The notes under the pieces: generated by a model
What the model was told of the DNA's origin: nothing
Databases searched by the model: none
What the model saw: only the letters and a program-made list of their open reading frames with translations
Program-made: the position numbers and the translations under genes
Assembly: GCA_027717985.1 (NCBI GenBank)
Contig: JALLOO010000001.1
Span: 80,534-144,533 of the forward strand
DNA length: 64,000 bases
Source of the DNA: Patescibacteria group bacterium AH-259-L05
GTDB lineage: Bacteria; Patescibacteriota; Patescibacteriia; UBA2591; UBA6264
Reading direction: 5' to 3'
Shown: piece by piece, positions 2,823 through 58,696 of the stretch
How positions within the stretch are numbered: the stretch's first letter is position 1
Layout of the letters: every line of letters starts with the position of its first letter

Positions 2823-4985
2823 ATGAAAACTGATAAAATTCGAAAAACATTTTTAGATTTTTTTAAGAGAAGGGGTCATGAAATTATTCCCTCATCTTCG
2901 TTAATTCCTGCTGATCCGACAGCATTATTTACTTCAGCAGGTATGCAGCAATTTGTGCCGTATTTGTCTGGTGAGGTTGAACCGCCCTATCGCCGTGCCG
3001 CAAGTGCGCAAAAGTGTTTTCGTACCTCTGATATTGATGAGGTAGGTGATGAATATCATCATACCTATTTTGAAATGCTTGGTAATTGGTCATTTGGTGA
3101 TTATTTTAAGACTGAGGCAATTCAATGGGCATTGGAATTATTGGTAAAAGAATATAAGTTACCACAGGATAAGCTTTGGGTGACTGTATTTTTAGGAGAA
3201 AGAGGCGTGTCCAAAGATACGGAAGCAGCAAAGCTGTGGGAGCAATTTGGCGTTGATAAGAAAAGAATTAAAGAGTTTGGTATGGAGGATAATTTTTGGG
3301 GGCCGGTTGGTTCAACCGGGCCATGCGGGCCATGTACTGAAATTCATTATGATCAAGGCAAAGATTTTCAAAAAGAAAAATGCTCTCTTAATGGATGCGG
3401 GCCGAATTGTAGTTGCGGGAGATTTGTTGAAGTATGGAATTTAGTATTTATGGAGTATCGCAAGACTCGTGAAGGTAAATATGAAAAATTACCTGCGCAA
3501 AACGTTGATACCGGCGCGGGATTAGAACGTCTCGCCGCAGTGCTTCAAAACAAATCATCAGATTATGAAACAGATTTATTTTTGCCCATAGTTAATACAA
3601 TTAAAGAGCTTTCGCCAATTTCTTTGTCATCTCCCCCTCTGTCTTCCCGAGCGACCCCTCCTTTGTCATCCCGAGCGACCCCTCCTTTGTCATCCCGAGC
3701 GACCCCTCCTTTGTCATCCCGAGCGACCCCTCCTTTGTCATCCCGAGCGACCCCTCCTTTGTCATCCCGAGCGACCCCTCCTTTGTCATCCCGAGCGACC
3801 CCTCCTTTGTCATCCCGAGCGACCCCTCCTTTGTCATCCCGAGCGACCCCTCCTCTGTCTTCCCGAGCGACCCCTCCTTTGTCATCCCGAGCGACCCCTC
3901 CTTTGTCATCCCGAGCGACCCCTCCTTTGTCATCCCGAGCGACCGAAGGGAGCGAGGGATCCCAACAAAATGAAAAAGCAGTTCGCGTTATTGCTGATCA
4001 TATGCGCGCCGTGTGTTTTTTAATTGCCGATGGCGTGATTCCTTCAAATGAAGATCGCGGATATATGCTTCGCCGGTTAATGCGAAGGGCGATGCGCTAT
4101 GCTCGCAGGCTTCATATGGGGAAAAATTTTTTAATCCCCATTTGCCAAGTGATCATTGATGTATATAAGGGGCAGTATCCCGAATTACAAAAAAAACAAA
4201 ATGATATTTTAACATTGGTGCAAAACGAAGAAGAAAAATTTATGAAAAGCCTGCGTGATGGATTGAAACGGTTTAGAGTATTAGTACAAGAGACAAAAAA
4301 TCAAGACGAGACTGTTTTAGATCCTCAAAAAACATTTCAACTCTATGATACGTATGGCTTCCCGATTGAATTAACCATTGAGATGGCGCAGGAAAAGGGA
4401 TTAACAGTGGATGAAGTTGGGTTTCAAAAAGAGTTTGAGCGTCATCGAAAAATATCACGCGCCGGCGCAGTGCATAAGTTTAGTGGTGTTGGTGAGTGGG
4501 GAGATAAGGTCGCGCCCCAGCACAGCGCTACCCATTTGCTCCATCAAGCATTGCGCGATGTACTAGGCGAGCATGTGCATCAAGATGGTTCTGATTTAAC
4601 GCCTGAGCGCCTGCGGTTTGATTTTACACACCCTAAGCCATTAACAAAGGAAGAGATTAAAGCAATTGAAGATTTGGTAAATAAGCAAATTGAGCGCGAT
4701 CTCATCGTGACGGTTGAAAAAAAGAAATTTGAAAATGCGGTTAAAGCTGGTGCGCTTGCTTTTTTTAGAGAGAAATATCCTAAAGAAGTGACCGTCTATA
4801 CTATGGGGGATTTTTCAAAAGAGGTATGTACCGGGCCGCATGTTAAACATACGAACCAAATTGGAAAATTTAAAATTGTAAAAGATGAAGCGCTTTCTGC
4901 AGGAGCGAGAAGGATTAGAGCAGTGGTTGAGGGGAGTACATATAAACCAAAAGGGATTTCAGTTTTTGATTCTAAAAGCATTTAA
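2823..4985 (+). CDS. alaS: Alanine--tRNA ligase, short form (no C-Ala domain), carrying a 13x8-aa repeat insertion
   Basis: FTSAGMQQF, RVIADHMRAVCFLIADGVIPSNEDRGY, and the editing-domain motifs HSATHLLHQAL and CTGPHV. 720 aa including about 114 aa encoded by the repeat. Confidence 0.93.
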   Translation: MKTDKIRKTFLDFFKRRGHEIIPSSSLIPADPTALFTSAGMQQFVPYLSGEVEPPYRRAASAQKCFRTSDIDEVGDEYHHTYFEMLGNWSFGDYFKTEAIQWALELLVKEYKLPQDKLWVTVFLGERGVSKDTEAAKLWEQFGVDKKRIKEFGMEDNFWGPVGSTGPCGPCTEIHYDQGKDFQKEKCSLNGCGPNCSCGRFVEVWNLVFMEYRKTREGKYEKLPAQNVDTGAGLERLAAVLQNKSSDYETDLFLPIVNTIKELSPISLSSPPLSSRATPPLSSRATPPLSSRATPPLSSRATPPLSSRATPPLSSRATPPLSSRATPPLSSRATPPLSSRATPPLSSRATPPLSSRATPPLSSRATPPLSSRATEGSEGSQQNEKAVRVIADHMRAVCFLIADGVIPSNEDRGYMLRRLMRRAMRYARRLHMGKNFLIPICQVIIDVYKGQYPELQKKQNDILTLVQNEEEKFMKSLRDGLKRFRVLVQETKNQDETVLDPQKTFQLYDTYGFPIELTIEMAQEKGLTVDEVGFQKEFERHRKISRAGAVHKFSGVGEWGDKVAPQHSATHLLHQALRDVLGEHVHQDGSDLTPERLRFDFTHPKPLTKEEIKAIEDLVNKQIERDLIVTVEKKKFENAVKAGALAFFREKYPKEVTVYTMGDFSKEVCTGPHVKHTNQIGKFKIVKDEALSAGARRIRAVVEGSTYKPKGISVFDSKSI
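3621..3962 (+). repeat. Family-A repeat: tandem array of 13 x 24 bp (CCCCTCCTTTGTCATCCCGAGCGA-type) plus terminal hairpin arm, in frame in alaS
   Basis: 3633-3944 is 13 phased 24-nt units translated as (PPLSSRAT)13. Two units carry the CTGTCTTCC variant. The 3945-3961 arm GAAGGGAGCGAGGGATC pairs with the last unit. Confidence 0.95.
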
Positions 4986-11079: not shown

Positions 11080-14000
11080 ATGCCGACACCATCAACAATT
11101 TCCACATTAACGTTACCATCTGATAAAAGAAGACATCAGGCTGATTTTGATGCGATACGTTTACATCTCGCATCACCAAAAGAGATTATGGAGGAATGGT
11201 CATATGGGGAGGTTACGAAGCCAGAAACCATTAATTATCGATCTCGTAAGCCAGAGCGCGACGGCTTATTTTGTCAGAGAATTTTTGGTCCGGTAAAAGA
11301 CTGGCAGTGCGCGTGCGGCAAATATAAAAAGCTGCGCTATCGTGGTATCACGTGTGATCGTTGCGGCGTTGAGATAACGCGATCGTTAGTACGGCGTGAA
11401 CGCTTGGGCCATATTAAACTTGCTGCACCAGTAGCCCATATTTGGTTTTTGCGCAGCGTCCCATCAAAAATCGGGCTGTTGTTAGATATGTCAGTTGCGG
11501 CATTAGAAAAAGTGGCTTATTTTGCTAATTTTATCATTACCCATGTTGATGAAGATTTAAAAGAAAAAGCGCAAGAAAAATTAGAGCAAGAGTTTAATGA
11601 TGAGAAAAAAGCGCTTAAACATGAAAAACATAACGATTCAAAGGAATATGCAAGGAGACTTGAGGATCTAACGACAGCATATAAAGAAACAAAGCGTGAA
11701 ATAACAGAGTTATATGAAAAGCGTTTGTTAACTGAACTAGAATATCGCGAGCTTTCGATGAGCTATGGGCATATTTTTGAGGCTGGTATTGGTGCAGAGG
11801 CAATTTTAAAATTACTTGAAAATCTTGATTTGTCTAAACTTGCACGAGAACTTGAAAAGAAGCGGGGAGAAACAACCAATCCTACTAAAAAGAAAAAATT
11901 ACTCCAGCGTATAAAGTATGTCCACAATTTTATTACCAATAATGTCAAGCCAGAGTATATGGTGCTCCGTGCAGTGCCCGTGATTCCACCAGAACTAAGG
12001 CCATTAGTGCCGTTAGATGGCGGCAGGTTTGCGTCTTCAGATTTAAATGATTTGTATCGACGGATAATCAATCGCAATAATCGTTTAAAACGATTGTATG
12101 ATTTGCATGCGCCAGAGGTGATTTTACGCAATGAAAAGAGAATGCTTCAAGAAGCAGTTGATGCATTAATTGATAATGAAATGCGTTCAGGGAAAACAAC
12201 CATTGCCTCGACTGGGCAGCGAAGGCCCTTAAAATCTTTAGCTGATATTTTAAAAGGAAAGCAAGGGCGATTTCGACAGAATTTACTTGGGAAGCGCGTA
12301 GATTATTCAGGCCGATCTGTTATTGTGGTTGGGCCGCGCCTGAAGTTAAGTCAGTGCGGTCTGCCAAAGCTTATGGCAGTGGAATTGTTTAAGCCGTTTA
12401 TTGCTTCTGAATTAATTAAGCGAGAAATTGTTCATAATGTGAGATCCGCCAATCGTTTAATTGAGACAGGGACTGAAGAGGTATATGCTATTTTAGAAGA
12501 AATTATTAAAGATACACATGTATTATTGAATCGTGCGCCAACACTTCATCGATTAGGCATTCAAGCGTTTCAGCCTGTATTGATTGAAGGAAAAGCGATT
12601 CAAATTCATCCCTTGGTATGTGCAGCATTTAATGCTGATTTTGATGGAGATCAAATGGCGGTACACGTTCCTATTACGAGTCAGGCACGTGATGAGGCAA
12701 AAAATATTATTCTCTCAACACACAATTTGTTAAAGCCGGCAACGGGCGAGCCAATTGTGACCCCAACGCAAGATATGATCTGGGGCGCATATTATATGAC
12801 CTATTGTGAGCGGAGCGAACAACAAGGTTCTGCGAAGCATGGTTCTTATGACGAGCGGAGAGAGGAACAAGGTTCTGCGAAGCACGGTTCTTATATTCAC
12901 AAAAAAAGTAAAAAAGAATATCCGAATTTTAGTAGTATCGATGAAGCAGTGTTGGCATACTCAATCGGGAAAATTACGCTTCAAGAGAAAATTAACGTTA
13001 GAGTTGATTCTGAGCGCAGACAAGTGAGTGTGGGGCGGTTATTATTTAATGCAATTCTGCCAAAAGGAATTTATACTATGGATACCGTGGTTGATAAAGG
13101 GACGTTAAAACAAATTGTAATTAAAACAATTCAAAAATATGGCAGAGATAAGACAGTTGAATTGTTGGATCAAATTAAACAAACTACACTCACGTATTTA
13201 ACAGGATCAGGGCTTTCGTGGGGAATGGATGATTTGCCTGACTTGGAGCAAAAAAAAGAGATTCTTGCTGAGGCAGAAAAACGCATTGATGAGATTAGAA
13301 ACCAATATGAAACCGGTTTGTTATCTGAAAATGAACGATATTTAAAAAGTATCGAAGTGTGGATTAGCGCAAAAGATAAAATTACTGAGGTGGTGAGAAA
13401 ACGAGATCCTGAATTTAGTCCTATATTTTCTATGGTTGAATCCGGTGCACGGGGTTCATGGGCACAGCTTACCCAAATGTTTGGTATGCGTGGTATTGTA
13501 TCTTCGCCAACCGGCAGATTAATTGAGCTTCCTATTAAATCTTCATTTAAAGAAGGATTTAATGTGTTAGAATATTTTATTTCTACCCATGGTTCGCGAA
13601 AAGGTGTATCTGATACCGCGCTTCGTACGGCGAGTGCGGGATATTTAACCCGGCGCATGGTTGATGTATGTCAGGACATTATTATTACTAAAAATGATTG
13701 TAAGAGTGCAAAGGGTTTTAAGTTCACGCGTGAAGACAATACAAAAATGGGAGAAAATTGGCAAACGCGTTTATTTGGCAGAGTAGCAGAAAAGGCAATC
13801 CATGACCCAAAATCAAAGGCTGTTATTGTTCGCAAAAATGATGTTATATCATATGATAAGGCAGAGGAAATACAAAATGCAGATCCTGAAGAGGTAAGGA
13901 TTCGATCGGTATTAACGTGTCAATCAGTGCGCGGTATATGCGCGCGATGCTATGGCTATGATTTAAGCTATAACGAGCCGGTTAAGATTGGTACACCAGT

Positions 14001-15012
14001 CGGTATTATTGCAGCTCAAAGTATTGGTGAACCAGGAACCCAGCTGACGCTGAGGACGTTTCATACAGGAGGTGTTGCGGGTAAAGATATTACACAAGGG
14101 CTTCCGCGTGTTGAAGAGCTGTTTGAAGTTAGGCCAGTAAAGCGGAAAGCAGTTATGGCAAAGCATAAGGGCACTGTTAAGATTATCTCATCAGATGATC
14201 AAAAAAGAGTTAGGATTACCTATCTGAGCAGACAAGAAGATACGTATACCATTGCGGGCAAAAAAGCCAAGCTTAACGTTAAGCAAGGGCAAAAATTAAA
14301 AAAGGGCGATAGTATTGCAATATTACCCTCCTTGTCATCCCGCGCCTCGCGCGGGAAGACAAAAGAAGTGTCATCTTCTGGGAAGAAAATCACGGCGCGG
14401 CATAGTGGAGAAGTTGCTATTGAAGATACGGTGGTTACGGTAACATATGAGGGGGAAAAACATGAAGAGTATGATGTGGCCGGATATACCATATGGGTTA
14501 AAGACAAAGATAAGGTAGAGAAGGGTCAGCAATTAACTGATGGAAGTTTGGATTTGCGTGAACTCTATACATTGCGCGGCAAAGAAGAGGTAGAAAAATA
14601 TATATTGCGGGAAATTCAATATATTTATTCATCTCAGGGGCAAAGATTAAATGATAAGCATGTTGAGCTCATTATTCGTCAAATATTTTCCCGCGTATTA
14701 GTAGTGGATTCTGGTGATACTGATCTTTTGCCCGGAGAGATTGTACCCAAAGCGTATGTAATTGAAGCAAATAAGATAGTTGAAAAAGAAGGTAAGAAAT
14801 CGGCCAAAGTAAAGGAGCTGCTCACTGGTATCACCCGGGTTTCACTCTCGACCGATAGCTGGCTTTCTGCTGCGAGTTTTCAAGAAACATCTCGTGTGTT
14901 AGTTAATGCGGCAATTAGCGGGCGGCCTGATTATTTACGCGGGTTAAAAGAAAATGTAATTGTGGGACAATTAATCCCTGCGGGAACCGGTTTGGAATCT
15001 AGAAAGGCCTAG
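11080..15012 (+). CDS. rpoC: DNA-directed RNA polymerase subunit beta-prime, with two repeat-derived in-frame insertions
   Basis: Zn finger CACGKYKKLRYRGITCDRCGV, catalytic NADFDGDQMAVH, and trigger-loop region DITQGLPRVEELFE. Confidence 0.96.
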   Translation: MPTPSTISTLTLPSDKRRHQADFDAIRLHLASPKEIMEEWSYGEVTKPETINYRSRKPERDGLFCQRIFGPVKDWQCACGKYKKLRYRGITCDRCGVEITRSLVRRERLGHIKLAAPVAHIWFLRSVPSKIGLLLDMSVAALEKVAYFANFIITHVDEDLKEKAQEKLEQEFNDEKKALKHEKHNDSKEYARRLEDLTTAYKETKREITELYEKRLLTELEYRELSMSYGHIFEAGIGAEAILKLLENLDLSKLARELEKKRGETTNPTKKKKLLQRIKYVHNFITNNVKPEYMVLRAVPVIPPELRPLVPLDGGRFASSDLNDLYRRIINRNNRLKRLYDLHAPEVILRNEKRMLQEAVDALIDNEMRSGKTTIASTGQRRPLKSLADILKGKQGRFRQNLLGKRVDYSGRSVIVVGPRLKLSQCGLPKLMAVELFKPFIASELIKREIVHNVRSANRLIETGTEEVYAILEEIIKDTHVLLNRAPTLHRLGIQAFQPVLIEGKAIQIHPLVCAAFNADFDGDQMAVHVPITSQARDEAKNIILSTHNLLKPATGEPIVTPTQDMIWGAYYMTYCERSEQQGSAKHGSYDERREEQGSAKHGSYIHKKSKKEYPNFSSIDEAVLAYSIGKITLQEKINVRVDSERRQVSVGRLLFNAILPKGIYTMDTVVDKGTLKQIVIKTIQKYGRDKTVELLDQIKQTTLTYLTGSGLSWGMDDLPDLEQKKEILAEAEKRIDEIRNQYETGLLSENERYLKSIEVWISAKDKITEVVRKRDPEFSPIFSMVESGARGSWAQLTQMFGMRGIVSSPTGRLIELPIKSSFKEGFNVLEYFISTHGSRKGVSDTALRTASAGYLTRRMVDVCQDIIITKNDCKSAKGFKFTREDNTKMGENWQTRLFGRVAEKAIHDPKSKAVIVRKNDVISYDKAEEIQNADPEEVRIRSVLTCQSVRGICARCYGYDLSYNEPVKIGTPVGIIAAQSIGEPGTQLTLRTFHTGGVAGKDITQGLPRVEELFEVRPVKRKAVMAKHKGTVKIISSDDQKRVRITYLSRQEDTYTIAGKKAKLNVKQGQKLKKGDSIAILPSLSSRASRGKTKEVSSSGKKITARHSGEVAIEDTVVTVTYEGEKHEEYDVAGYTIWVKDKDKVEKGQQLTDGSLDLRELYTLRGKEEVEKYILREIQYIYSSQGQRLNDKHVELIIRQIFSRVLVVDSGDTDLLPGEIVPKAYVIEANKIVEKEGKKSAKVKELLTGITRVSLSTDSWLSAASFQETSRVLVNAAISGRPDYLRGLKENVIVGQLIPAGTGLESRKA
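12808..12894 (-). repeat. Family-B-related tandem duplication (42 + 45 nt) in frame in rpoC
   Basis: Two consecutive copies of GAGCGGAG(C/A)GA..CAAGGTTCTGCGAAGCA(T/C)GGTTCTTAT encode ERSEQQGSAKHGSY / DERREEQGSAKHGSY. The core matches CAAGGTTCTGACGAAGTCAGGTTCTTAT at 58668-58696. Confidence 0.8.
14327..14365 (+). repeat. Family-A repeat (long-palindrome subtype) in frame in rpoC
   Basis: CCCTCCTTGTCATCCCGCGCCTCGCGCGGGAAGACAAAAG. A 14-bp stem (TTGTCATCCCGCGC / GCGCGGGAAGACAA) with one mismatch. Encodes [13 protein letters not shown]. Confidence 0.85.
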
Positions 15013-15040
15013 ATTTTAGATTTAAGATTCTAGATTTATG

Positions 15041-15068
15041 AGTTTGCTTTACTATGCAAACTTTTTAT
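15041..15068 (+). terminator. Rho-independent terminator-like hairpin after rpoC
   Basis: AGTTTGC-TTTACTAT-GCAAACT followed by TTTTAT. The stem is AT-rich, so only moderate support. Confidence 0.45.
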
Positions 15069-15076
15069 GCTATAAT
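15068..15076 (+). promoter_or_regulatory. Extended -10 promoter element (TGcTATAAT) upstream of ftsK
   Basis: TG at 15068-15069 and TATAAT at 15071-15076. The -35 is weak (TTTACT). The family-A repeat at 15109-15182 would lie in the leader. Confidence 0.4.
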
Positions 15077-15108
15077 GATCACATTAATGATCTTGAATTA
15101 CGAAATAG

Positions 15109-15182
15109 CCCCACCTTGTCATTCCGAGCGAACTGCCCCCTTTTGTCATTCCGAGCGAGCCCAAAGGCGAGCGAGGAATCTC
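15109..15182 (+). repeat. Family-A repeat, intergenic copy (two TTGTCATTCCGAGCGA units plus GAGCGAGGAATC arm) in the ftsK leader
   Basis: CCCCACCTTGTCATTCCGAGCGAACTGCCCCCTTTTGTCATTCCGAGCGAGCCCAAAGGCGAGCGAGGAATCTC. Same architecture as 3921-3961 and 18121-18169. Confidence 0.9.
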
Positions 15183-15206
15183 AAACATTAATGAGTATTG
15201 ATTTTT

Positions 15207-17390
15207 ATGGCTAAAAAAAGACAAAGAAAATCAACAAAGCTTCGAAAAGAGCGTAAAACAAAAAAGAATAGAAAAAGGAGGAAAAAGCAAGGATTTGAAA
15301 AAATGAGTGAATTTCATCGTCAGGCTATATCCATTATTTTGATAGCCCTGTCAGTAATTTTGTTGTTAAGCCAAATTGGACTTGCCGGTATAGCAGGTGA
15401 GTTTTTCGCACTCGGACTTCAAATATTATTTGGCTGGGTGAGCTGGTTTATCCCGGTGATATTTTTAATTTTAGCGTTTATTAGTATTAAATATGATGCA
15501 ATTCAAGATCAGAGTATACTTCGCCTAAAACGGCCGCCTTCATTTATTACTCGTTTTCTCGTCCTAATACTCTTAGCAGTTATATTATCTTCAGCACTTC
15601 ATGTCTCATTTATTAATAATCCAACCGCATTAAACGAATTACAAGGCGGTGGATATATTGGGTATGGCATTAGTTATGTGATGGTGAAAACCTTTGGCAA
15701 TTGGGCAAGTTGGATTATTTTCGCAGCCGCTTTTATTATTGGGTTGTTTGTTGCGCTTTCAGGCATGATAAAGAAAAAACCGAAAAAAGAAGAACGGGTA
15801 GTGGTAAAACAGAGCTTTATACATCGTATTTTTGAAAAAATAAAAAAACTCATATCTCATAAACAGCCAGCAGTTGAGAGCACATCAGAAACAGAAAAGT
15901 TGCTTGAAGTATTACCAGAGGATGAAGGAGCTTTATCCTCTCCCTCAAAACAAAAACCAACACTTCCTATTACGGCGATAAAATCATATCAAAAAGCTGA
16001 TATGCCGTTACATCTATTAGATAGCGCCAGCTCTAAACCAAACGCAGGAGATATTAAGGCGAATAAATTAATTATTAAGCGTACATTAGAGAATTTTTAT
16101 ATTCCGGTGGAAATGGGAGAGGTAAAGGTTGGCCCTACGGTAACACAATATACATTAAAGCCAGCAGAAGGCGTAAAATTATCTAAAATTACCACGCTTC
16201 ACAATGATCTATCAATGGCATTAGCAGCGCATCCGATTCGTATTGAAGCGCCCATTCCCGGCCGATCTATGGTAGGGATTGAAGTGCCGAATGTCCGTGT
16301 TGCCGTGATTCGCTTAAAAGAAATGTTAGTGAGCGATACGTTTAAAAAACGAAAATCAAATTTAACTATATCGCTCGGCCGTGATGTAGCAGGAAGAATT
16401 TGGTTGGCAGATTTATCTAATATGCCGCATATGTTAGTAGCAGGCAGTACGGGATCAGGAAAAACAATATTTTTAAATTCAGTTATTATAAGTTTAATTT
16501 ATCAAAATGCGCCTGAAGATTTGCGTTTTATTTTAATTGATCCAAAACGCGTTGAGCTTACGTTATATAATGAACTGCCGCATTTATTAACCCCCGTTAT
16601 CGTGGATGTTGATAAAACAATTAATGCCCTGAAATGGACTATTGGTGAAATGGAGCGTCGGTTTGACATAATGCATGACGCACAAAAACGAAACATTAGT
16701 ACGTATAATAGCGCGTTTTCTAATAGTAGACTCCCCTATATTATTGTTATTATAGATGAGTTAGCGGATTTAATGGTTACCGCACCACATGAGGTGGAAA
16801 CCTGTATTATTCGTTTAGCGCAGATGGCACGTGCAACAGGAATCCATTTAGTGATGGCAACCCAACGCCCGTCGGTTGACATTATTACGGGATTAATTAA
16901 GGCAAATATTACCACGCGCGTTGCGTTTTCAGTAGCTTCTGCAGTTGATTCACGAACCATTTTAGATTTTTCTGGTGCAGAACGGTTGTTAGGACGGGGA
17001 GATATGCTATTTATCTCGCCTGAGATTTCAAAACCACGGCGTTTGCAGGGCCCGTATGTTTCTGATATCGAGATTAAAAAAGTAGTTGAGTATTTAAAAA
17101 ATATTGCGAAACCTTTGTATAAAGAAGAAGTTACGGAATCACAGCCAGATGATATACGTTCTCATTTTGGCGATTTAAAAAAAGATGAACTTTTAGATGA
17201 GGCGCGCGAGACAGTAATTGCAGCGGGGAAAGCATCGGCATCATATTTACAGCGGCGACTGCGTATTGGCTATGCCAGGGCCGCGCGACTCCTAGATTTA
17301 TTAGAAGAAGAGGGGACTATTGGGCCTCAAGAAGGATCAAAACCACGAGAAGTATACACGTCTTCTTCTAATAAAGAAGACGCGGAGTAG
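15207..17390 (+). CDS. ftsK: DNA translocase FtsK/SpoIIIE
   Basis: N-terminal TM segments, Walker A VAGSTGSGKT, Walker B IIVIIDELADLM, and a C-terminal gamma winged helix (SYLQRRLRIGYARAARLLD). ATG 15207 is preferred. Confidence 0.92.
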   Translation: MAKKRQRKSTKLRKERKTKKNRKRRKKQGFEKMSEFHRQAISIILIALSVILLLSQIGLAGIAGEFFALGLQILFGWVSWFIPVIFLILAFISIKYDAIQDQSILRLKRPPSFITRFLVLILLAVILSSALHVSFINNPTALNELQGGGYIGYGISYVMVKTFGNWASWIIFAAAFIIGLFVALSGMIKKKPKKEERVVVKQSFIHRIFEKIKKLISHKQPAVESTSETEKLLEVLPEDEGALSSPSKQKPTLPITAIKSYQKADMPLHLLDSASSKPNAGDIKANKLIIKRTLENFYIPVEMGEVKVGPTVTQYTLKPAEGVKLSKITTLHNDLSMALAAHPIRIEAPIPGRSMVGIEVPNVRVAVIRLKEMLVSDTFKKRKSNLTISLGRDVAGRIWLADLSNMPHMLVAGSTGSGKTIFLNSVIISLIYQNAPEDLRFILIDPKRVELTLYNELPHLLTPVIVDVDKTINALKWTIGEMERRFDIMHDAQKRNISTYNSAFSNSRLPYIIVIIDELADLMVTAPHEVETCIIRLAQMARATGIHLVMATQRPSVDIITGLIKANITTRVAFSVASAVDSRTILDFSGAERLLGRGDMLFISPEISKPRRLQGPYVSDIEIKKVVEYLKNIAKPLYKEEVTESQPDDIRSHFGDLKKDELLDEARETVIAAGKASASYLQRRLRIGYARAARLLDLLEEEGTIGPQEGSKPREVYTSSSNKEDAE

Positions 17391-17405: not shown

Positions 17406-18149
17406 ATGTCGTTTACTTCAAAACAAGTGAGATCAGATACCTTAGGGCATGTGTTACAACAAACGCGCGAGGATAAGGGATTGAGTCTTAAAGATGTAGA
17501 ACAAAGTACGAGCATTGTTAAAAAATATTTAGAATATTTAGAAGCAGATGATTTTTATAAATTCCCCAGTACAACATATACGCGCGGGATTCTCAAACGT
17601 TATGCAGAGGCGTTAGAATTGGATGCGCGAAGTATTATAAATCAATGGGAACGAGAATATAGCGCTCCTTTGTCATCCCGTCCCCCCTTGTCATCCCGTT
17701 CCCCTTTGTCATCCCGTTCCCCTTTGTCATCCCGCGCGAAGCGCGGGAAGACAAAGGAAAAGTTGTCATCCCGCATCCCACTAAAGTGGGCTTCTCCTAA
17801 AAACGTTGTAGTACTGGCAATCCTTATCTTGATTTTATTATATATTGGTGTTAATATTAAAACAGCGATAGCACCACCATTAATTGAGATTATACATCCG
17901 CCAGATGAATTTATAGCTTCAAAGTCCAGCATTGTCGTACAAGGTACAACAAAACCTCATATAGAAGTATTTATAAACAATCAATTAATTGGCATCGCTG
18001 ATGCTTATGGGGGCTTTGAACAAGTCGTGGCCTTATTGCCTGGTTTAAATACCATTGAGATTTCAGCCAAGAAAAAATATTCGCGTATGCGAACCATATA
18101 CCGCCAGATCGTATTAGAAGCCCCCTCCCTTGTCATCCCGAGCGACTGA
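17406..18149 (+). CDS. RodZ-like HTH/transmembrane protein, with repeat-derived internal segment and repeat-derived C-terminus
   Basis: N-terminal XRE-type HTH ([38 protein letters not shown]), one TM ([16 protein letters not shown]) and a C-terminal beta-rich domain, as in RodZ. Confidence 0.6.
17665..17790 (+). repeat. Family-A repeat cluster (4 x 18-nt TTTGTCATCCCG units, a 17-bp-stem palindrome, one more unit) in frame in the rodZ-like gene
   Basis: Encodes [41 protein letters not shown]. The palindrome is CCTTTGTCATCCCGCGC-GAA-GCGCGGGAAGACAAAGG at 17721-17757, with a GCGAAGC centre. Confidence 0.9.
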
Positions 18150-18169
18150 AAGGAGCGAGGGACTGATTC
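18121..18169 (+). repeat. Family-A repeat spanning the rodZ-like stop codon and the recA leader
   Basis: CCCCCTCCCTTGTCATCCCGAGCGACTGAAAGGAGCGAGGGACTGATTC. It encodes the last 9 aa (APSLVIPSD) and the TGA stop (18147-18149) of the upstream gene. Confidence 0.9.
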
Positions 18170-18189
18170 GTATATTAATATTGATTTTT

Positions 18190-19197
18190 ATGGCACAACA
18201 AGACCAAAAACAAGACAGGAAAAAAGCTGCAGAATCTGCAGTTGAACAGTTGCAGTCTCGGTTTGGCGAAGGGGCTATTATGAAGCTGGGAGAAGCAAAA
18301 AAAATGAAAGTAGATGTGATTCCCACCGGCTGTCTTTCCCTTGATTTAGCATTAGGCGTTGGAGGCATTCCTCGCGGCCGGGTTATAGAAATTTTTGGAC
18401 TTGAGATGACTGGAAAATCAACCCTGGCGCTTCATATCATAGCTGAAGCACAAAAAAAAGGCGGTATAGCCGCTTTTGTTGATGCCGAGCATGCGTTAGA
18501 CCCAGATTATGCCAAGCGCATTGGTGTTAAAGTTGATGATTTATTAATTTCTCAGCCAGATACAGGAGAGCAAGCCTTAGAGATTGTTGAAACATTGGTT
18601 CGCTCAAATGGGGTAGATGTGATTGTGATAGATTCAGTAGCTGCATTAACACCAAGAAAGGAGATTGAAGGCGAGATGGGAGATCATCATATTGGCCTTC
18701 AAGCCCGTTTAATGAGTCAAGCGCTGCGAAAGTTAACCAGCATCGTGGGTAAAACAAAAACTGCAGTTATTTTTATTAATCAAATTCGAATGAAAATCGG
18801 AGTTTATTTCGGGAACCCTCAGACCACGACCGGAGGGTTGGCTTTAAAATTTTATTCATCAGTTAGAATTGAACTGCGCCGTTTAGTACAAATTAAAAAA
18901 GGTGATGAAGTAATAGGCAATCGGGTTAAGGCAAAAGTAGTGAAAAATAAAGTAGCCCCACCGTTTAAAATTGCTGAGTTTGAGATTATGTATAACGAAG
19001 GAATTTCATATACGGGTGATTTGCTTAACTTAGGCGCAAAATATGGTTTGGTAACAAAAAAAGGCAACACCTTATACTATGATAAAGAAAAACTTGGTGT
19101 TGGCTGGGAAAATGCAAAAAATTATTTAAAAGAAAATTCTAAAATGGCAGCTGATCTAAAAAAACAAATCCTCAAATCCCTCAAAGAACAAGAATAA
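18190..19197 (+). CDS. recA: Recombinase RecA
   Basis: [19 protein letters not shown] (P-loop), [12 protein letters not shown] and [13 protein letters not shown] 18190 (MAQQDQK) is preferred, because the 18130 extension is encoded by the repeat. Confidence 0.95.
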
Positions 19198-19215
19198 AAT
19201 TCAGTATTTTAAAAA

Positions 19216-19250
19216 ATCCAGCTTCTCACTGATGAGAGCCGGATCTTTTT
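19216..19250. terminator. Bidirectional terminator-like hairpin between convergent recA and the HEPN gene
   Basis: An A6 tract, then the imperfect stem ATCCAGCTTCTC / GAGAGCCGGAT, then a T5 tract. Confidence 0.5.
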
Positions 19251-19261
19251 ATTTTCTAATT

Positions 19262-19633
19262 TTATTTAAGATTAGTTAATAATTTATCAACTTCTTGTGG
19301 AAATTTTAAAGCTTTTTTAAAAACTGCATCAGCCATCTTTTCATTATAAGTGTGGGCAATACGGTTTCTGTTGTCTAAAAATTCAAACCATGTTTCAACA
19401 TTTTCAATTAATTCTAGTTTTCCAGCTTGTCTTAGACAATTTTTAGGACTTTGGCAATTAAGGCCCTGGTCTCTAATATATTCCTGAATAGTTTTCCATC
19501 CAAGTTCAAAAGTAAATTCAAATCTTTGAACAGTAGCATCTTTATTCATTCTAGTAGGACTAGCCTTTGTTGCTTGTTTAAGTCTTTGGTTAGCTTTTTT
19601 AAGATCTTTAATTAAACTATAAAGTTTTGTCAT
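19262..19633 (-). CDS. HEPN-domain protein, HI0074-family nucleotidyltransferase substrate-binding subunit (toxin of a HEPN/MNT pair)
   Basis: VQRFEFTFELGWKTIQEY and the RNRIAHTY (Rx4-6H) motif. Overlaps the upstream MNT gene by 4 nt. Confidence 0.85.
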   Translation of the reverse strand: MTKLYSLIKDLKKANQRLKQATKASPTRMNKDATVQRFEFTFELGWKTIQEYIRDQGLNCQSPKNCLRQAGKLELIENVETWFEFLDNRNRIAHTYNEKMADAVFKKALKFPQEVDKLLTNLK

Positions 19634-19914
19634 AATTGTTTTATTTTAGACAAAGCTATGTCTTTAAATTTTTTATCAACGAATGAAAAATCAACAATAT
19701 CAACGTTATATGGCAGGTCAGATTCTTCTAATGCCTCTTCAATTAAAATCTTGGTGCTTGAAGGAATGGGTTTTTTGCTCCAAATGCCAATATCATAGTC
19801 ACTGTATTTTTTAGCTTTACCAGTTGCTCTAGAGCCAAAAATAAAGACTTTGTGAACTTTAGGATCAAGAAATTGAAAAATGATTTTTTTAATTGTTTTT
19901 TCTGCTGATTTCAT
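19630..19914 (-). CDS. Minimal nucleotidyltransferase (MNT) domain protein (antitoxin partner)
   Basis: IFGSRATGKAKKYSDYDIGIW (GS...DxD pol-beta-type NTase motif). 94 aa. Confidence 0.8.
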   Translation of the reverse strand: MKSAEKTIKKIIFQFLDPKVHKVFIFGSRATGKAKKYSDYDIGIWSKKPIPSSTKILIEEALEESDLPYNVDIVDFSFVDKKFKDIALSKIKQL

Positions 19915-20121
19915 AATTTATCTCTCATACATTATAGTGTACTATATTTGTTAAAAATTTTCGTATATGTGGTGCTGAGCAAAGTCGTTTGCTTAATCAG
20001 GGCGCTTATGTATTAGGATAACATAATACAAAAAAAGAGTAAATGGGCAGATTTGTCCAATACAAGATGAGCCCCGAATAGATCCCGCTTTCTCACGCAA
20101 AATGAGCCCCAAATTGCGTTA

Positions 20122-24477: not shown

Positions 24478-25453
24478 TAGTTAATTTTAGGCCGGTATTT
24501 AAATCAATTTTTGGCTTCCACCCAAGCTCTCTTTTTATTTTTTCCCAATCAAGCGCACTTCGCTGCAACTCTCCTTTAATAGGCGGTTCATATTTTTTAG
24601 ATATTTTAGAATTAGTAAATTGAGTTAATTTTTTAAAAATTTGATTAACACTAGTTTGCTTCCCAGTGCCAACATTGTATATACCTATTTTATTTCCTCC
24701 AAGAGCCAATAAATTCGCACGTACCACATCTTCAACATACACATAATCCCGTGTTTGTCTGCCAGATCCGTTAATAGTACATGGTTTGTTGTTCAATATA
24801 TTGAGAATAAATATAGCAATAACTCCTGCTTCTGCAAGCACATTTTGTCGTGGGCCATACACATTTGCGTATCTGAGCACAACGTAATCCAGCCCAAATT
24901 GTTTATAAGAACCTGACTTCGTCGCGCTAAGCGCGACTTTGTCAGAACCTTGAAATTTGAAAGGAATGATATCTTTATCCAAATTATAATAAATTTTTAA
25001 ATATTTTTCAACCGTGAGCTTGCTTAACCCATAAGGCGAAGTTGGCTGAGCAGTGTAACTTTCAAGTGTAGGTATTTTTTTTGTTTCCCCATAGATAGCC
25101 CCACCAGTTGAAGAGAAAATAATTTTTTTTACTTTATATTTTTGCGCGTTTTCAATAACATTAAGCGATCCTAATATATTAACATCAGCGTCGAATACAG
25201 GGCTTTCTAAAGAGGCTCTTAAATTGATCTGTGCGGCACAATGAAATACAATGTCAGGTTTTTCACTAATAAAAATCTCATTAACTTTTTTATCTCGAAT
25301 GTCTATCTTAAAGAATTTTGCTTTTGGATTTATATTTTTTTTTAATCCAGTCGATAAATCATCAATTATATATACTTTATGCCTATTTTGAATGAGAGAG
25401 TCCACAAGGTGAGAACCAATAAACCCCGCCCCACCAGTTACTAAAATTTTCAT
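24455..25453 (-). CDS. NAD-dependent sugar epimerase (UDP-glucose 4-epimerase GalE-like), with a repeat-derived 26-27-aa insertion
   Basis: ILVTGGAGFIGSH and YGLSKLTVEKY (YxxxK). The conserved run ...KIYY / KQFGLDYVVLRYANVYGPRQ is interrupted by NLDKDIIPFKFQGSDKVALSATKSGSY. Confidence 0.8.
   Translation of the reverse strand: MKILVTGGAGFIGSHLVDSLIQNRHKVYIIDDLSTGLKKNINPKAKFFKIDIRDKKVNEIFISEKPDIVFHCAAQINLRASLESPVFDADVNILGSLNVIENAQKYKVKKIIFSSTGGAIYGETKKIPTLESYTAQPTSPYGLSKLTVEKYLKIYYNLDKDIIPFKFQGSDKVALSATKSGSYKQFGLDYVVLRYANVYGPRQNVLAEAGVIAIFILNILNNKPCTINGSGRQTRDYVYVEDVVRANLLALGGNKIGIYNVGTGKQTSVNQIFKKLTQFTNSKISKKYEPPIKGELQRSALDWEKIKRELGWKPKIDLNTGLKLTIDWFKKR
24905..24983 (+). repeat. Family-B repeat, full-length copy with nested GCGC palindrome, in frame in the galE-like gene
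   Basis: Collinear with 82-140 apart from an extra GCGCTAAGCGCGACTTTGTC. The palindrome GTCGCGC-TAA-GCGCGAC is at 24921-24937 and is flanked by GACTTCGTC / GACTTTGTC. Confidence 0.9.
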
Positions 25454-29487: not shown

Positions 29488-30267
29488 TTACTGTTTATGC
29501 GCTACTGCAAAGAATACCTTATATTGATGACCGGGAACATTATGAGGAATAGGCATTGGCGGGGAATATTTGACCATGCCATGTTTAATTTCTGGTGGTA
29601 ATTCTAATAATTTGCCAAAAAGAAGTCTTTTAAATACTTCCTTGCCTTTCATTGTTTTTGGTATAAGATGCAATTTGACAGCAACTCTTTTTATAATGGA
29701 TATAATTTTGTTTTTCAATGATTTTGTTGAGATAGGGCAATCAGCAAAGAATTTAATATCTTTGAAATTATGATTTTTTAGCAAATTATATAATTCTGGT
29801 ACAGAATAATATTTATAGCTAAAAGGACTTTTATTAAAATCAGACCAGTCTTTATTAACCGTGCCAATAATTAAGGTCCCTGTTTTTCTAAGTACACGCC
29901 AGGCTTCTTTAAGAAATTTTTCTGGATGTTTTAAATAATAAATAGCTTCATATATGATAATCACGTCAAAAGAGTTATCTTCAAAAGGTAGATTGTGGGC
30001 ATCAAATGAGCGGAGTTCAATATTGTCTCTTCCCTGATAATATTCTTTTGCATATTTTAAAATATTTTTATCAATATCTCCGCCAATTACTGTTTTGGCT
30101 TTTTTAGCCAAAAATCCTAATCCTTGACCGGCGCCGCATGCTACTTCAAGAACGTCTTTGTTTTCACAAAACTGAGCAGCAAAATAATAACGGTTACAGC
30201 TTCTGGCAAATTGTTCTTTAGAGGCTTTAGATCTAGGGAGCTCTGTGATAGTGCTATAGTCAACCAT
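29488..30267 (-). CDS. Class I SAM-dependent methyltransferase
   Basis: VLEVACGAGQGLGFLA (motif I) and FDVIIIYEAIYYL. Confidence 0.75.
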   Translation of the reverse strand: MVDYSTITELPRSKASKEQFARSCNRYYFAAQFCENKDVLEVACGAGQGLGFLAKKAKTVIGGDIDKNILKYAKEYYQGRDNIELRSFDAHNLPFEDNSFDVIIIYEAIYYLKHPEKFLKEAWRVLRKTGTLIIGTVNKDWSDFNKSPFSYKYYSVPELYNLLKNHNFKDIKFFADCPISTKSLKNKIISIIKRVAVKLHLIPKTMKGKEVFKRLLFGKLLELPPEIKHGMVKYSPPMPIPHNVPGHQYKVFFAVAHKQ

Positions 30268-31366
30268 AAAAAGTGTGGATTGATTTAATTACGTATTTAA
30301 TTTGACTTTCATTAAGTTCAGGAATTAAGGGCAGAGAGATTACCTCTTTAGCAAACTGTTCTGTGTTGGGTAAATTAAAATGCGAAAGTTTTAGGGATTT
30401 TTGATGGTGAATAGGGATTGGGTTTGAAATGATTGTTTCGATACTTTTTTCTTTTAGGAATAAAGCAAGTTTATCTCGTTTTCGAGCCTTGATTACATAG
30501 TTTTGATAAACATCGAAAAATCGTCCCTTTGATTGCGGAGGGGGAGGGAGAAAGATTTTATTTATATTAGATAATCCTTGATGGTATATAGCAGCTAATT
30601 TTCGTCGTCTCTTGATCCAAGAGGGAAGATATTTGAATTTTACATTAAGAACGGCTGCTTGAAGATTATCTAAACGACTAGTAAATCCATAACACACTAA
30701 TTTGTTTTTAGTTTCTCGGCCGTGATCCCTTAATAAGCGAATTTTCTTTGCTAGAATTTTGTTATTCGTACAAACTATTCCAGCATCTCCAAGCGCACCA
30801 AGAAGCTTTGCTGGGTAGAAACTGAAGCAGCTAGACAATCCAAACGATCCTGCTTTTTTGCCGTCAAATTTAGCACCAAGCGCTTGGGCAGCATCTTCGA
30901 TTAGTATTAGATTATGCTTTTTAGCAATAGTCATTAATTTTTTCATATCACAAACCCGGCCATTAAAATGAACAGGAATAATTGCTTTAGTTTTGTTTGT
31001 AATTACTGCCTTCAATTTATCCATATCCATATTATAGTCATCTCCAACATCAACCAAAATCGGCCTAGCGCCGCAATGGATAATGGCCTCTATTGTGGCG
31101 ACAAACGTATGAGCTACAGTAATCACTTCATCACCTTTTCCTATACCAGCAGCGCGTAACGAAAAGATTAAAGAATCGGTACAACTATTCACCCCAACTG
31201 CATATTTAACACCCAGAAATGAGGCTGTGTTTTTTTCAAATTTTTCCACGTCACTACGAAGGATTAAATCACCCCTTGATAACGCTCTTGTTATTGTCGT
31301 GTCTATTTCCTTTTTTAGATTCTTATACTGGAGCGGATAATTTACAAATGGTACTTTATATCGCAT
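30260..31366 (-). CDS. DegT/DnrJ/EryC1/StrS-family PLP-dependent sugar aminotransferase
   Basis: FSFYPAKLLGALGDAG (PLP lysine region) and LIEDAAQALGA. Confidence 0.85.
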   Translation of the reverse strand: MRYKVPFVNYPLQYKNLKKEIDTTITRALSRGDLILRSDVEKFEKNTASFLGVKYAVGVNSCTDSLIFSLRAAGIGKGDEVITVAHTFVATIEAIIHCGARPILVDVGDDYNMDMDKLKAVITNKTKAIIPVHFNGRVCDMKKLMTIAKKHNLILIEDAAQALGAKFDGKKAGSFGLSSCFSFYPAKLLGALGDAGIVCTNNKILAKKIRLLRDHGRETKNKLVCYGFTSRLDNLQAAVLNVKFKYLPSWIKRRRKLAAIYHQGLSNINKIFLPPPPQSKGRFFDVYQNYVIKARKRDKLALFLKEKSIETIISNPIPIHHQKSLKLSHFNLPNTEQFAKEVISLPLIPELNESQIKYVIKSIHTFYG

Positions 31367-58667: not shown

Positions 58668-58696
58668 TCAAGGTTCTGACGAAGTCAGGTTCTTAT
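58668..58696 (-). repeat. Family-B repeat core in the 5' leader of the HTH gene
   Basis: The plus strand reads TCAAGGTTCTGACGAAGTCAGGTTCTTAT, the reverse complement of 82-110. It lies 18 nt upstream of the ATG at 58650. Confidence 0.85.

Follow-up and report, generated by a model that had tools for sequence, protein, structure and literature searches.

Comparison with related genomes shows that one copy of a palindromic repeat, here called family A, entered the last sense codon of a rodZ-like gene in Patescibacteria group bacterium AH-259-L05 (L05) after its split from the sister genome AH-259-L07 (L07), and that an ancestral ...VLEE-TAA end with a 10-nt spacer thereby became a repeat-encoded C-terminus and a 40-nt recA spacer. 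The recA start region also shares an identical 16-mer, TATTGATTTTTATGGC, with that of ftsK, the other gene with a family-A copy in its leader. In the reading we favor, to which we assign a probability of about 0.55, insertion of a selfish family-A element remodeled the rodZ-recA junction, and the shared tract arose by a one-off short-tract copy between the two leaders.

The window is the whole 64,000-nt stretch analyzed, and its relevant features are collected in Table 1. Its AlaRS, RecA and FtsK products are 100% matches to L05 proteins. The closest comparison genome, L07, is syntenic with L05, with 85-96% nucleotide identity in genes; the second comparison at the rodZ-recA junction is the more distant relative L021. 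In all, the junction was read in 14 relative loci, and 11 homologs entered the RodZ-like alignment.

Table 1. Genes, family-A copies and leader features in the window
Feature	Position	Strand	Details
alaS family-A array	3640-3962	+	13 tandem 24-nt left arms and one terminal hairpin, in frame
rpoC family-A hairpin, GCGC type	14325-14372	+	in frame; absent in L07 rpoC
Best sigma-70-like promoter of the region	15048-15076	+	TTTACT-17-TATAAT with TG
10-nt direct repeat ACATTAATGA	15081-15090 and 15185-15194	+	brackets the ftsK-leader element; only two exact occurrences in window
Family-A copy, rpoC-ftsK spacer	15109-15185	+	fold -17.6 kcal/mol, z -3.5
Its left arms	15109-15132, 15136-15158		followed by inner stem-loop GCCCAAAGGC
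Its right arm GAGCGAGGAAT	15169-15179		closing CTCAAA
16-mer TATTGATTTTTATGGC at ftsK	15196-15211	+	includes start codon (15207); preceded by ATTAAT (15187-15192) and GAG
ftsK	15207-17390	+	727 aa; Pfam FtsK domains; same start annotated by NCBI (MDA2935671.1)
RodZ-like gene	17406-18149	+	247 aa; Pfam HTH_25 2.5e-20, TM segment, C-terminal domain
Family-A array, RodZ-like linker	17665-17762	+	four 18-nt left arms and a perfect GCGC-type hairpin
Family-A hairpin copy, rodZ-recA junction	18121-18169	+	read directly; absent from orthologous site in L07 and L021
Its left arm CCCCCTCCC-TTGTCATCCCGAGCGA	18121-18145
Its loop CTGAAAG	18146-18152
TGA stop of RodZ-like gene	18147-18149	+	within the hairpin loop
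Its right arm GAGCGAGGGA	18153-18162		closing CTGAT(TC)
Tail, right arm to recA ATG	18163-18189	+	27 nt; ATTAAT (18174-18179) and first 11 nt of the 16-mer
16-mer TATTGATTTTTATGGC at recA	18179-18194	+	includes start codon (18190)
recA	18190-19197	+	335 aa; Pfam RecA 1.1e-131; same start annotated by NCBI (MDA2935673.1)

Stop-codon donation at the rodZ-recA junction

In both L07 and L021 the junction reads GTATTAGA(A/G)GAGTAA-TTAAAAATTT-ATG, that is, ...VLEE-TAA-TTAAAAATTT-ATG, without a repeat, and in the alignment with L07, 66 nt in L05 replace 12 nt. Because both relatives lack a repeat at this site, the insertion is the derived state. The initial annotation had read the junction copy in a frame of its own (APSLVIPSD), with the TGA that ends the rodZ-like ORF inside the repeat. 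Direct reading bears out both observations: the last nine residues of the RodZ-like protein (18120-18146) are repeat-derived, and the TGA falls in the hairpin loop. As the same loop, TGA included, stands in a noncoding family-A copy in the L07 adk leader, the stop arrived with the element. The other coding copies use the LSSRA frame (alaS, rpoC and, as PLSSR..., inside the RodZ-like gene itself), and in the recA reading frame the junction copy is open in the usual PPLSSRA frame.

The further suggestion that stop donation reflects a rodZ-like 3' end remodeled by insertion is well supported by the relatives. The RodZ-like homologs (n = 11) end in VLEE, VLEK or other short tails, none with repeat sequence, and at recA no homolog shows the repeat, L07 and the more distant relative retaining GAAGAGTAA-TTAAAAATTT-ATG. 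An alternative genetic code with TGA as a sense codon can be rejected, given that TGA is an ordinary stop here, ending 13 of the 50 ORFs of the window, and that homologs end at the same place. An assembly artifact is an unlikely source of the junction, since L07 shows the same gene order and collinear flanks. A candidate target-site duplication at recA (TCGTATTA / TCGTATATTA) was also rejected, since the shared 6-mer is expected by chance and an extra 9-nt deletion would be needed.

An independent parallel occurs in the same window with a different repeat family, B. There, a family-B unit inserted at the ATGA overlap of ruvX and a GT4 glycosyltransferase gene (77-144) donates both a TGA and a new leader.

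Family-A copies and the ftsK leader

Family A is a hairpin of about 35-50 nt whose core, TGTCATYCCGAGCGA, has 18 matches in the window against 0.05 expected. An outer stem ATYCC/GGRAT encloses a middle segment GAGCGA/GAGCGA, in which G-A, A-G, G-C, C-G, G-A and A-G pairs are possible, followed by a short stem with its loop. Left arms may be multiplied in tandem, up to 13 times, with periods of 24 or 18 nt. The junction copy keeps this pattern of stem, GA-GC-GA and stem, with an RNA fold of -14.2 kcal/mol. Across four copies, covariation is not significant, with a single compensatory pair (C-G to U-A).

Of the five family-A loci in the window, three are intragenic and another overlaps with a stop codon. 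In alaS, rpoC and the RodZ-like gene the reading frame continues through the repeat, with Pfam domains intact on both sides. The alaS array reads (PPLSSRAT)x13 and is absent from L07, whose AlaRS has 609 aa versus 720 aa, while the array in the RodZ-like linker reads PLSSR...AKRGKTK (fold -29.4 kcal/mol, z -7.6) at a site where L07 has other repeat content. Presence or absence between L05 and L07 at alaS, rpoC and the rodZ-recA junction indicates recent mobility, and family A turns over fast; as far as seen, it is confined to the AH-259-L05/L07 Patescibacteria lineage.

The initial annotation also noted that the ftsK leader is arranged like that of recA, with a repeat from 15109 and the ATG at 15207, and this arrangement is present. 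Since the best promoter of the region lies upstream of it, the ftsK-leader repeat is probably in the 5' UTR. The L07 ftsK leader, although TTTTATGCTATAAT is found upstream of ftsK there too, is not alignable to that of L05 and holds a family-B element instead; a protein search with the N-terminal half of FtsK gave no further relative for this comparison. The direct repeat ACATTAATGA brackets the L05 element, its left copy standing 18 nt away. At the recA, alaS and rpoC copies native bases have been replaced, and no clean target duplication is visible; the family-A arms are inverted repeats.

The start region shared by ftsK and recA

Both leaders carry ATTAAT followed by the 16-mer, as the initial annotation had stated, though the spacing differs: ATTAAT overlaps the 16-mer by one base at recA, and GAG separates them at ftsK. 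This is no generic start context: the 16-mer occurs exactly twice in the window, and the seven further matches with 3 mismatches include none at either leader. Among 1225 gene-start pairs, ftsK and recA have the longest identical run upstream of the ATG (11 nt, next best 7), 0.018 pairs with a run of at least 11 nt being expected, and no other similarity between upstream regions rises above background (score 32 for this tract, at most 22 elsewhere). No counterpart of the 16-mer was found in L07 or the other loci, 25 in all, that were compared. The recA tail has only TTT (plus ATGGC) in common with the L07 spacer TTAAAAATTT. Two apparent likenesses were rejected, neither exceeding the background of 80 upstream regions: one between the recA tail and the leader of ftsK in L07 (ATTCGTAT), the other between the tails at L07 adk and at ftsK (ATCTCA..CATTA).

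In our favored reading, the family-A hairpin would be selfish or neutral DNA and no dedicated regulator of recA or ftsK. Of the 16-mer, TTTATGGC, about half, would be native to recA, which it already precedes in L07, and the Met-Ala start is probably native to ftsK, MAKKR starts occurring in distant FtsK homologs. The remaining TATTGATT and ATTAA(T) would have arisen during junction remodeling, most likely by a one-off short-tract copy, through ectopic conversion or template switching, between two repeat-adjacent leaders 3 kb apart, with the pre-existing TTTATGGC(TAAA) identity as its right-hand anchor. The direction from ftsK to recA is slightly favored, since relatives otherwise show no variation in the 10-nt recA spacer, but polarity of donor and recipient is obscured by the other element occupying the L07 ftsK leader. 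No Shine-Dalgarno sequences were seen upstream of the approximately 50 genes of the window, and selection in such a genome for an unstructured, AU-rich stretch of about 27 nt before the AUG may explain the lengthened spacer.

Some observations count against this reading. The recA and ftsK hairpins are not each other's closest copies: the recA-leader hairpin is identical to the L07 adk copy and near the alaS copy (C variant), whereas the ftsK-leader hairpin is a T variant with two left arms and another loop. Next to the hairpin, the two leaders have 11-16 nt that are unrelated (8 of 16 matches); a single contiguous copy of hairpin and tail therefore does not fit, and the reading has to assume a short-tract event of its own. 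A purely accidental copy does not foresee the constant spacing of the conserved right arm GAGCGAGGRA, which ends 27 nt (recA), 28 nt (ftsK) and 27 nt (L07 adk) before the ATG, in three of three intergenic copies. This constancy hints at a link to initiation. The distance of 20 nt initially given for recA holds when counted from 18169, but the conserved right arm itself ends 27 nt before the ATG.

That spacing would be expected if the mobile unit were the hairpin together with a tail of about 27 nt (ATTAAT..TATTGATTTTTATG) that ends at, or supplies, the start-codon context, a unit that might be likened to the family-B hairpin and tail or to Neisseria REP2. Such a unit would account for the recA leader, in which, compared with L07 and L021, tail and hairpin are new at the same time. 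Family B indeed moves as a hairpin with a 38-nt tail and has landed exactly on a start codon, and the insert at recA has a length divisible by 3, with the recA frame open through it. The third intergenic copy speaks against it, however: the L07 adk hairpin is identical, but its tail is unrelated to the recA and ftsK tails, so that the tail is common to two of three intergenic copies only. Between ftsK and recA, moreover, the tail bases nearest the hairpin are not the same and the hairpins belong to different subtypes despite the perfect 16-mer, and half of the 16-mer already stood at recA in L07. A scan of a metagenome collection for the right arm with TTGATTTTTATG gave seven matches, all attributable to chance and lacking the left arm, and no further hairpin with the 16-mer. 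We consider this unit unlikely, and the earlier proposal that the repeat carries or targets an initiation context is not demonstrated.

Function offers another account, in which ATTAAT..TATTGATTTTTATGG would serve ftsK and recA as operator, RNA-protein site or translation enhancer, under selection at both, for instance to co-regulate them, and possibly acting with the hairpin. It gains from the perfect identity of 16 nt amid differing neighbors, from the probable location of both sites on one ftsK-rodZ-recA transcript with a single strong promoter, and from a U-rich context in a genome of mostly A-rich leaders. The tract is not conserved, however, the recA spacer being TTAAAAATTT in L07 and L021 and the leaders of relatives unrelated, and near-matches to the motif are not enriched (16 found versus 14 expected). 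Nor is there promoter geometry in the tail, where ATTAAT as -10 and TTGATT as -35 were rejected as no partner hexamer lies at the proper distance; a known RNA family was likewise rejected, with no Rfam match. A LexA/SOS box can be set aside as well, since the GGTTCT...GGTTCT motif in the relatives' leaders is mobile family B, also found inside rpoC. We regard a shared functional site as a distinctly doubtful explanation.

The same comparisons bear on the initial proposal that the hairpin is a shared cis-regulatory element of the two genes. None of the relatives examined (14 loci with the junction read) has it in front of recA, the L07 ftsK leader carries a different repeat, an identical hairpin lies upstream of adk in L07, and further copies are found inside alaS, rpoC and the RodZ-like gene. 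A role as a conserved regulator of recA or ftsK is, by this evidence, not supported.

More speculatively, in this CPR lineage, in which no Shine-Dalgarno sequences were seen, the hairpins might be modular 5'-leader builders. Inserted at stop/start junctions, they would free the downstream cistron from coupling to its neighbor and, here with the portable tract ATTAAT..TATTGATTTTTAUG, provide an unstructured stretch of constant length, about 27 nt, on which translation initiation of recA, ftsK and adk would depend. We give this idea little credence; were it true, ultra-compact genomes would regularly gain new C-termini, stops and initiation regions from selfish repeats.

Least probable of all is coincidence, by which two AU-rich Met-Ala leaders with a recurrent TTTTTATGG context would happen to share 7-8 more bases: the window has 7 occurrences of TTTTTATGG where 3.2 are expected, one further instance (30264-30272, minus strand) lies at a gene start, TTTATGGC was already at recA in L07, and the match was noticed post hoc among many possible pairs, but the expectation for runs of at least 11 nt is as low as given above, the probability for this specified pair is about 1.5e-5, ATTAAT extends the match, and ftsK and recA are exactly the two window genes with an intergenic family-A hairpin.

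Relation to known repeats and consequences for compact genomes

Like the REP/BIME elements of Enterobacteria and Pseudomonas, family A consists of imperfect hairpins of about 35 nt that are numerous and often stand at gene ends, but three of its five window loci are intragenic. Direct reading found no GTAG head, and a scan of 17 window ORFs found no RAYT transposase domain. REPs near stop codons are said, in work by Liang, Rudd and Deutscher from 2015, to affect translation of the upstream gene. Neisseria REP2, as Morelle et al. reportedly described in 2003, places a promoter and ribosome-binding site just upstream of ATGs, and it resembles family A in lying directly upstream of start codons and contributing the 5' leader. 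REP2, however, is about 120-150 bp long, has a recognizable promoter and RBS and is common to many genes, whereas the family-A tail is shared by two genes only, lacks both a promoter and a Shine-Dalgarno sequence, and does not accompany the third intergenic copy.

Also comparable are the Rickettsia palindromic elements (RPE; Ogata et al. 2000), with units given as about 105-146 bp in a table of PMC3184786. Both are selfish palindromic repeats that sit in frame in housekeeping genes without destroying them and vary in presence between close relatives, though family A is set apart from RPE-1 to RPE-8, by description, in its 35-50 nt units, its Patescibacteria host and its left arm repeated in tandem up to 13 times. 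Gene 3' ends extended by repeats are known from BOX/RUP/SPRITE in pneumococcus, BRE in Bordetella and Yersinia/E. coli MITE fusions (PMC3184786, where Neisseria REP2 is also mentioned among repeats). As in those cases, in-frame fusion of family A to a gene 3' end gives a new C-terminus and stop; the sequence families and hosts differ, and here the empty site in two relatives documents the event to the single codon.

Remodeling of the rodZ-recA junction by a repeat is an already known kind of event, and the 16-base start region common to ftsK and recA is real. Annotation is affected in practice: the repeat-bearing AlaRS goes under the name "alanine--tRNA ligase-related protein" at NCBI, and exact look-up of the repeat-bearing RodZ-like and RpoC products, as plain ORFs, did not find them in the protein collection. 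More broadly, the empty sites in two relatives reveal at single-codon resolution how small palindromic repeats reshape the ends of genes and the junctions between cistrons in a streamlined CPR genome. Between genomes that have diverged by only about 5-10%, these repeats alter essential genes (alaS, rpoC and the ftsK-rodZ-recA operon). A function of the constant spacing or of the 16-mer, should one be shown, would matter for the question of what marks a start site in bacteria that initiate without Shine-Dalgarno sequences.

The RodZ-like 3′ end lies within a repeat copy

The RodZ-like ORF between ftsK and recA (17406-18149; Pfam HTH_25, 2.5e-20) has its nine terminal codons and, consistent with the initial annotation, its stop inside the recA-leader copy of family A, a short hairpin repeat; the TGA (18147-18149) lies in the hairpin loop CTGAAAG. 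AlaRS, RecA and FtsK from the window match AH-259-L05 proteins on a 154-kb contig at 100% identity. TGA ends 13 of 50 ORFs and is thus an ordinary stop in the AH-259-L05 genome. The resulting APSLVIPSD tail occurs in no RodZ-like homologue: the alignment ceases at ...VLE in every one, and most end VLEE* or VLEK*. All 11 relatives identified in the genome collection have ftsK, the RodZ-like gene and recA in this order. The rodZ-recA junction reads GTATTAGAAGAGTAA-TTAAAAATTT-ATGGCT in the sister genome AH-259-L07 (L07; collinear with the window in loci L001 and L025, genes 85-96% identical) and GTATTAGAGGAGTAA-TTAAAAATTT-ATGACT in the more distant L021 (RodZ-like protein 55% identical); as both junctions are repeat-free, the repeat-free state with a 10-nt spacer is ancestral. 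Relative to L07, 66 nt stand in place of 12 nt, inserted after the first base of the RodZ-like last sense codon. Upstream of L07 adk, the 32-nt hairpin recurs unchanged, loop included, as non-coding DNA, so the TGA did not arise at the rodZ-recA site. Together, the repeat-free junctions and the homologues without the tail bear out the proposed remodelling of the 3′ end by insertion, and we conclude with high confidence that the repeat donated a stop codon to the RodZ-like gene. Within 18116-18192, the recA frame is open across the whole 66-nt insert, in family A's usual frame, with in-frame TTG codons at 18130 and 18181; the net gain, 54 nt, is divisible by three.

Lineage-specific family-A copies and a parallel family-B insertion

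The window contains 18 occurrences of the family-A core TGTCATYCCGAGCGA (0.05 expected); every copy is on the + strand, among the + strand genes that occupy 3.6-18.2 kb. Loci are laid out as at least one left arm followed by a single hairpin of one of two types, both matching predicted folds; in type 1, the paired GAGCGA strands can form G-A, A-G, G-C, C-G, G-A and A-G. A single compensatory change is seen in the outer stem (C-G to U-A, ftsK copy), four copies being too few for significance. No Rfam family matched the repeat, and full-text literature searches turned up no account of it. As first noted from the sequence, the copy ending the RodZ-like gene is read in its own frame: the coding copies in alaS, rpoC and the RodZ-like linker are all offset from it by one base, giving (PPLSSRAT)x13 in alaS and PLSSR...AKRGKTK in the linker.

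Family-A copies other than the recA-leader one are also lineage-specific, with the alaS array and the rpoC copy missing in L07 and different repeats present in its RodZ-like linker. The alaS arms add ~111 aa of (PPLSSRAT)n to AlaRS (720 aa vs 609 aa in L07, which has no insert) between two stretches of the catalytic-domain match, and the L05 product is listed by NCBI as 'alanine--tRNA ligase-related protein'. The exact repeat-bearing RodZ-like and RpoC (11080-15012) products have no entry in a 15-billion-protein collection, in which FtsK and RecA, neighbours on the same contig, do; public annotation may treat the former two otherwise, as pseudogenes or with different start codons. The spacers that follow rpoC, secY and ftsK include short periodic AT-rich stretches (TAGATTT, CAAAAAT and TTTAGGG-like units), and L05 and L07 have nothing in common in these tracts. 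The cumulative GC skew reaches its peak at ~19200-20100, where + strand genes give way to convergent - strand genes; this region beside ftsK and recA may be a replication terminus. The changeover point carries a HEPN/nucleotidyltransferase pair (19262-19914); in L07 such a pair also directly follows recA, but on the + strand.

An independent parallel event in the window involves family B, the second repeat family. At 77-144, a 62-nt unit (TAAGAACC-TGAC-TTC-GTCA-GAACCTTGAA plus a 38-nt tail) occupies the site of an overlapping ATGA in L07 (ruvX stop, family-4 glycosyltransferase start). ruvX now ends ...DQI-RT-TGA, two residues (RT) longer, its TGA being supplied by the element, and the downstream glycosyltransferase gains a new leader. 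The unit recurs at another L07 locus (94% identical), and a third tailed copy lies at ~24906-24990. Landing at a junction, donating a stop and supplying a new leader is thus a recurrent outcome, not special to recA. A TA target duplication is possible at the ruvX site. Family B (AAGGTTCTG-loop-GGTTCTTA) also has two in-frame copies within rpoC, neither of them present in L07, and interrupts an epimerase gene, dividing its Pfam match into two parts. Several distant relatives carry it in the leader of ftsK or recA, in some cases with a GTCGCGC-TTA-GCGCGAC hairpin nested in its loop, and TATAAT often ends intergenic copies.

Sites and organization of the repeats and associated features (L001 and L025, L07 loci; L004, L006 and L008, loci of other relatives)
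Feature	Copies	Period or structure	Window	Relatives
Left arms, alaS	13	24 nt	3640-3962	
Left arms, RodZ-like linker	4	18 nt		
Left arms, before ftsK	2	27 nt		
Hairpin type 1 (alaS, ftsK leader, recA leader)		ATYCC-GAGCGA-(short stem-loop)-GAGCGA-GGRAT		
Hairpin type 2 (rpoC, RodZ-like linker)		CCCGCGCG...CGCGGG, fully Watson-Crick		
Hairpin-to-ATG tails			18163-18189; 15179-15206	L025 2016-2042
ruvX/glycosyltransferase comparison			77-144	L025 7300-7320; L025 13268-13331
Family-B sites			12805-12893; 24906-24990; 58670-58695	L001 7577-7631; L004 3740-3763; L006 6716-6741; L008 1286-1317
AT-rich periodic spacer tracts			15010-15045	L025 1893-1927; L001 7380-7440 and 9860-9995

The shared ftsK and recA start region

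The 16-mer TATTGATTTTTATGGC occurs exactly twice in the window, at the ftsK and recA starts, with ATTAAT close upstream both times as the initial annotation described, and NCBI gives the same start codons. Upstream regions in this genome are A-rich, with no Shine-Dalgarno sequence seen. Of 1225 gene-start pairs, none matches ftsK/recA in the length of identical sequence preceding the ATG (11 nt, next 7; 0.018 pairs expected), and when 80 L05 and L07 genes were compared, no other upstream similarity rose above background. The 16-mer is not a generic start context, given this unmatched run and its absence from the corresponding positions in L07 and all other loci. Since L07 recA is already preceded and begun by TTTATGGC, and distant FtsK homologues include Met-Ala-Lys-Lys-Arg starts, the lineage-specific part is TATTGATT plus ATTAA(T).

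Our preferred reading is that a short tract was copied once from one leader to the other, as a single contiguous copy of hairpin and tail does not fit: the two hairpins are different variants, and the bases adjoining them are unrelated (8/16 match) whereas the distal 16-17 nt match perfectly. Rival readings are a portable leader, a selected site and coincidence. Also against a contiguous copy, the L07 adk leader pairs a recA-type hairpin with an unrelated tail, and a search of the metagenome collection for right arm + N5-30 + TTGATTTTTATG gave seven matches, none with a left arm. The suggestion that the repeat carries or targets an initiation context is unproven. The 10-mer ACATTAATGA occurs just twice in the window, flanking the ftsK-leader repeat (15081-15090 and 15185-15194), with similar bases 3′ of each copy (TC-TTGAATT vs GTATTGATTT); the pair could have arisen by duplication of the target or of a small segment.

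The proposal of a shared cis-regulatory hairpin for two DNA-metabolism genes is not supported, and a conserved regulator of such genes can be excluded, the hairpin being missing at recA in all relatives and replaced by another repeat at L07 ftsK, with copies before adk and inside three unrelated genes; comparison of recA and ftsK upstream regions in related genomes revealed no conserved hairpin or 16-mer. The region's best promoter (TTTACT-17-TATAAT with TG, 15048-15076, kept in L07) lies upstream of the ftsK-leader repeat and none comparable precedes recA, suggesting that both hairpins probably share one ftsK-rodZ-recA transcript. GAGCGAGGRA ends 27 nt before the ATG at recA, 28 nt at ftsK and 27 nt at L07 adk, a spacing common to all three intergenic GAGCGA-type hairpins despite their differing tails; from these three cases, we infer that it could reflect the shortest unstructured leader that permits initiation when no Shine-Dalgarno sequence is present.

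Repeats extending gene 3′ ends are a documented phenomenon (PMC3184786, section 15), and family A resembles known small palindromic repeats in its in-frame insertion and gene-end remodelling; it is an undescribed member of this known class of repeats that remodel gene ends.
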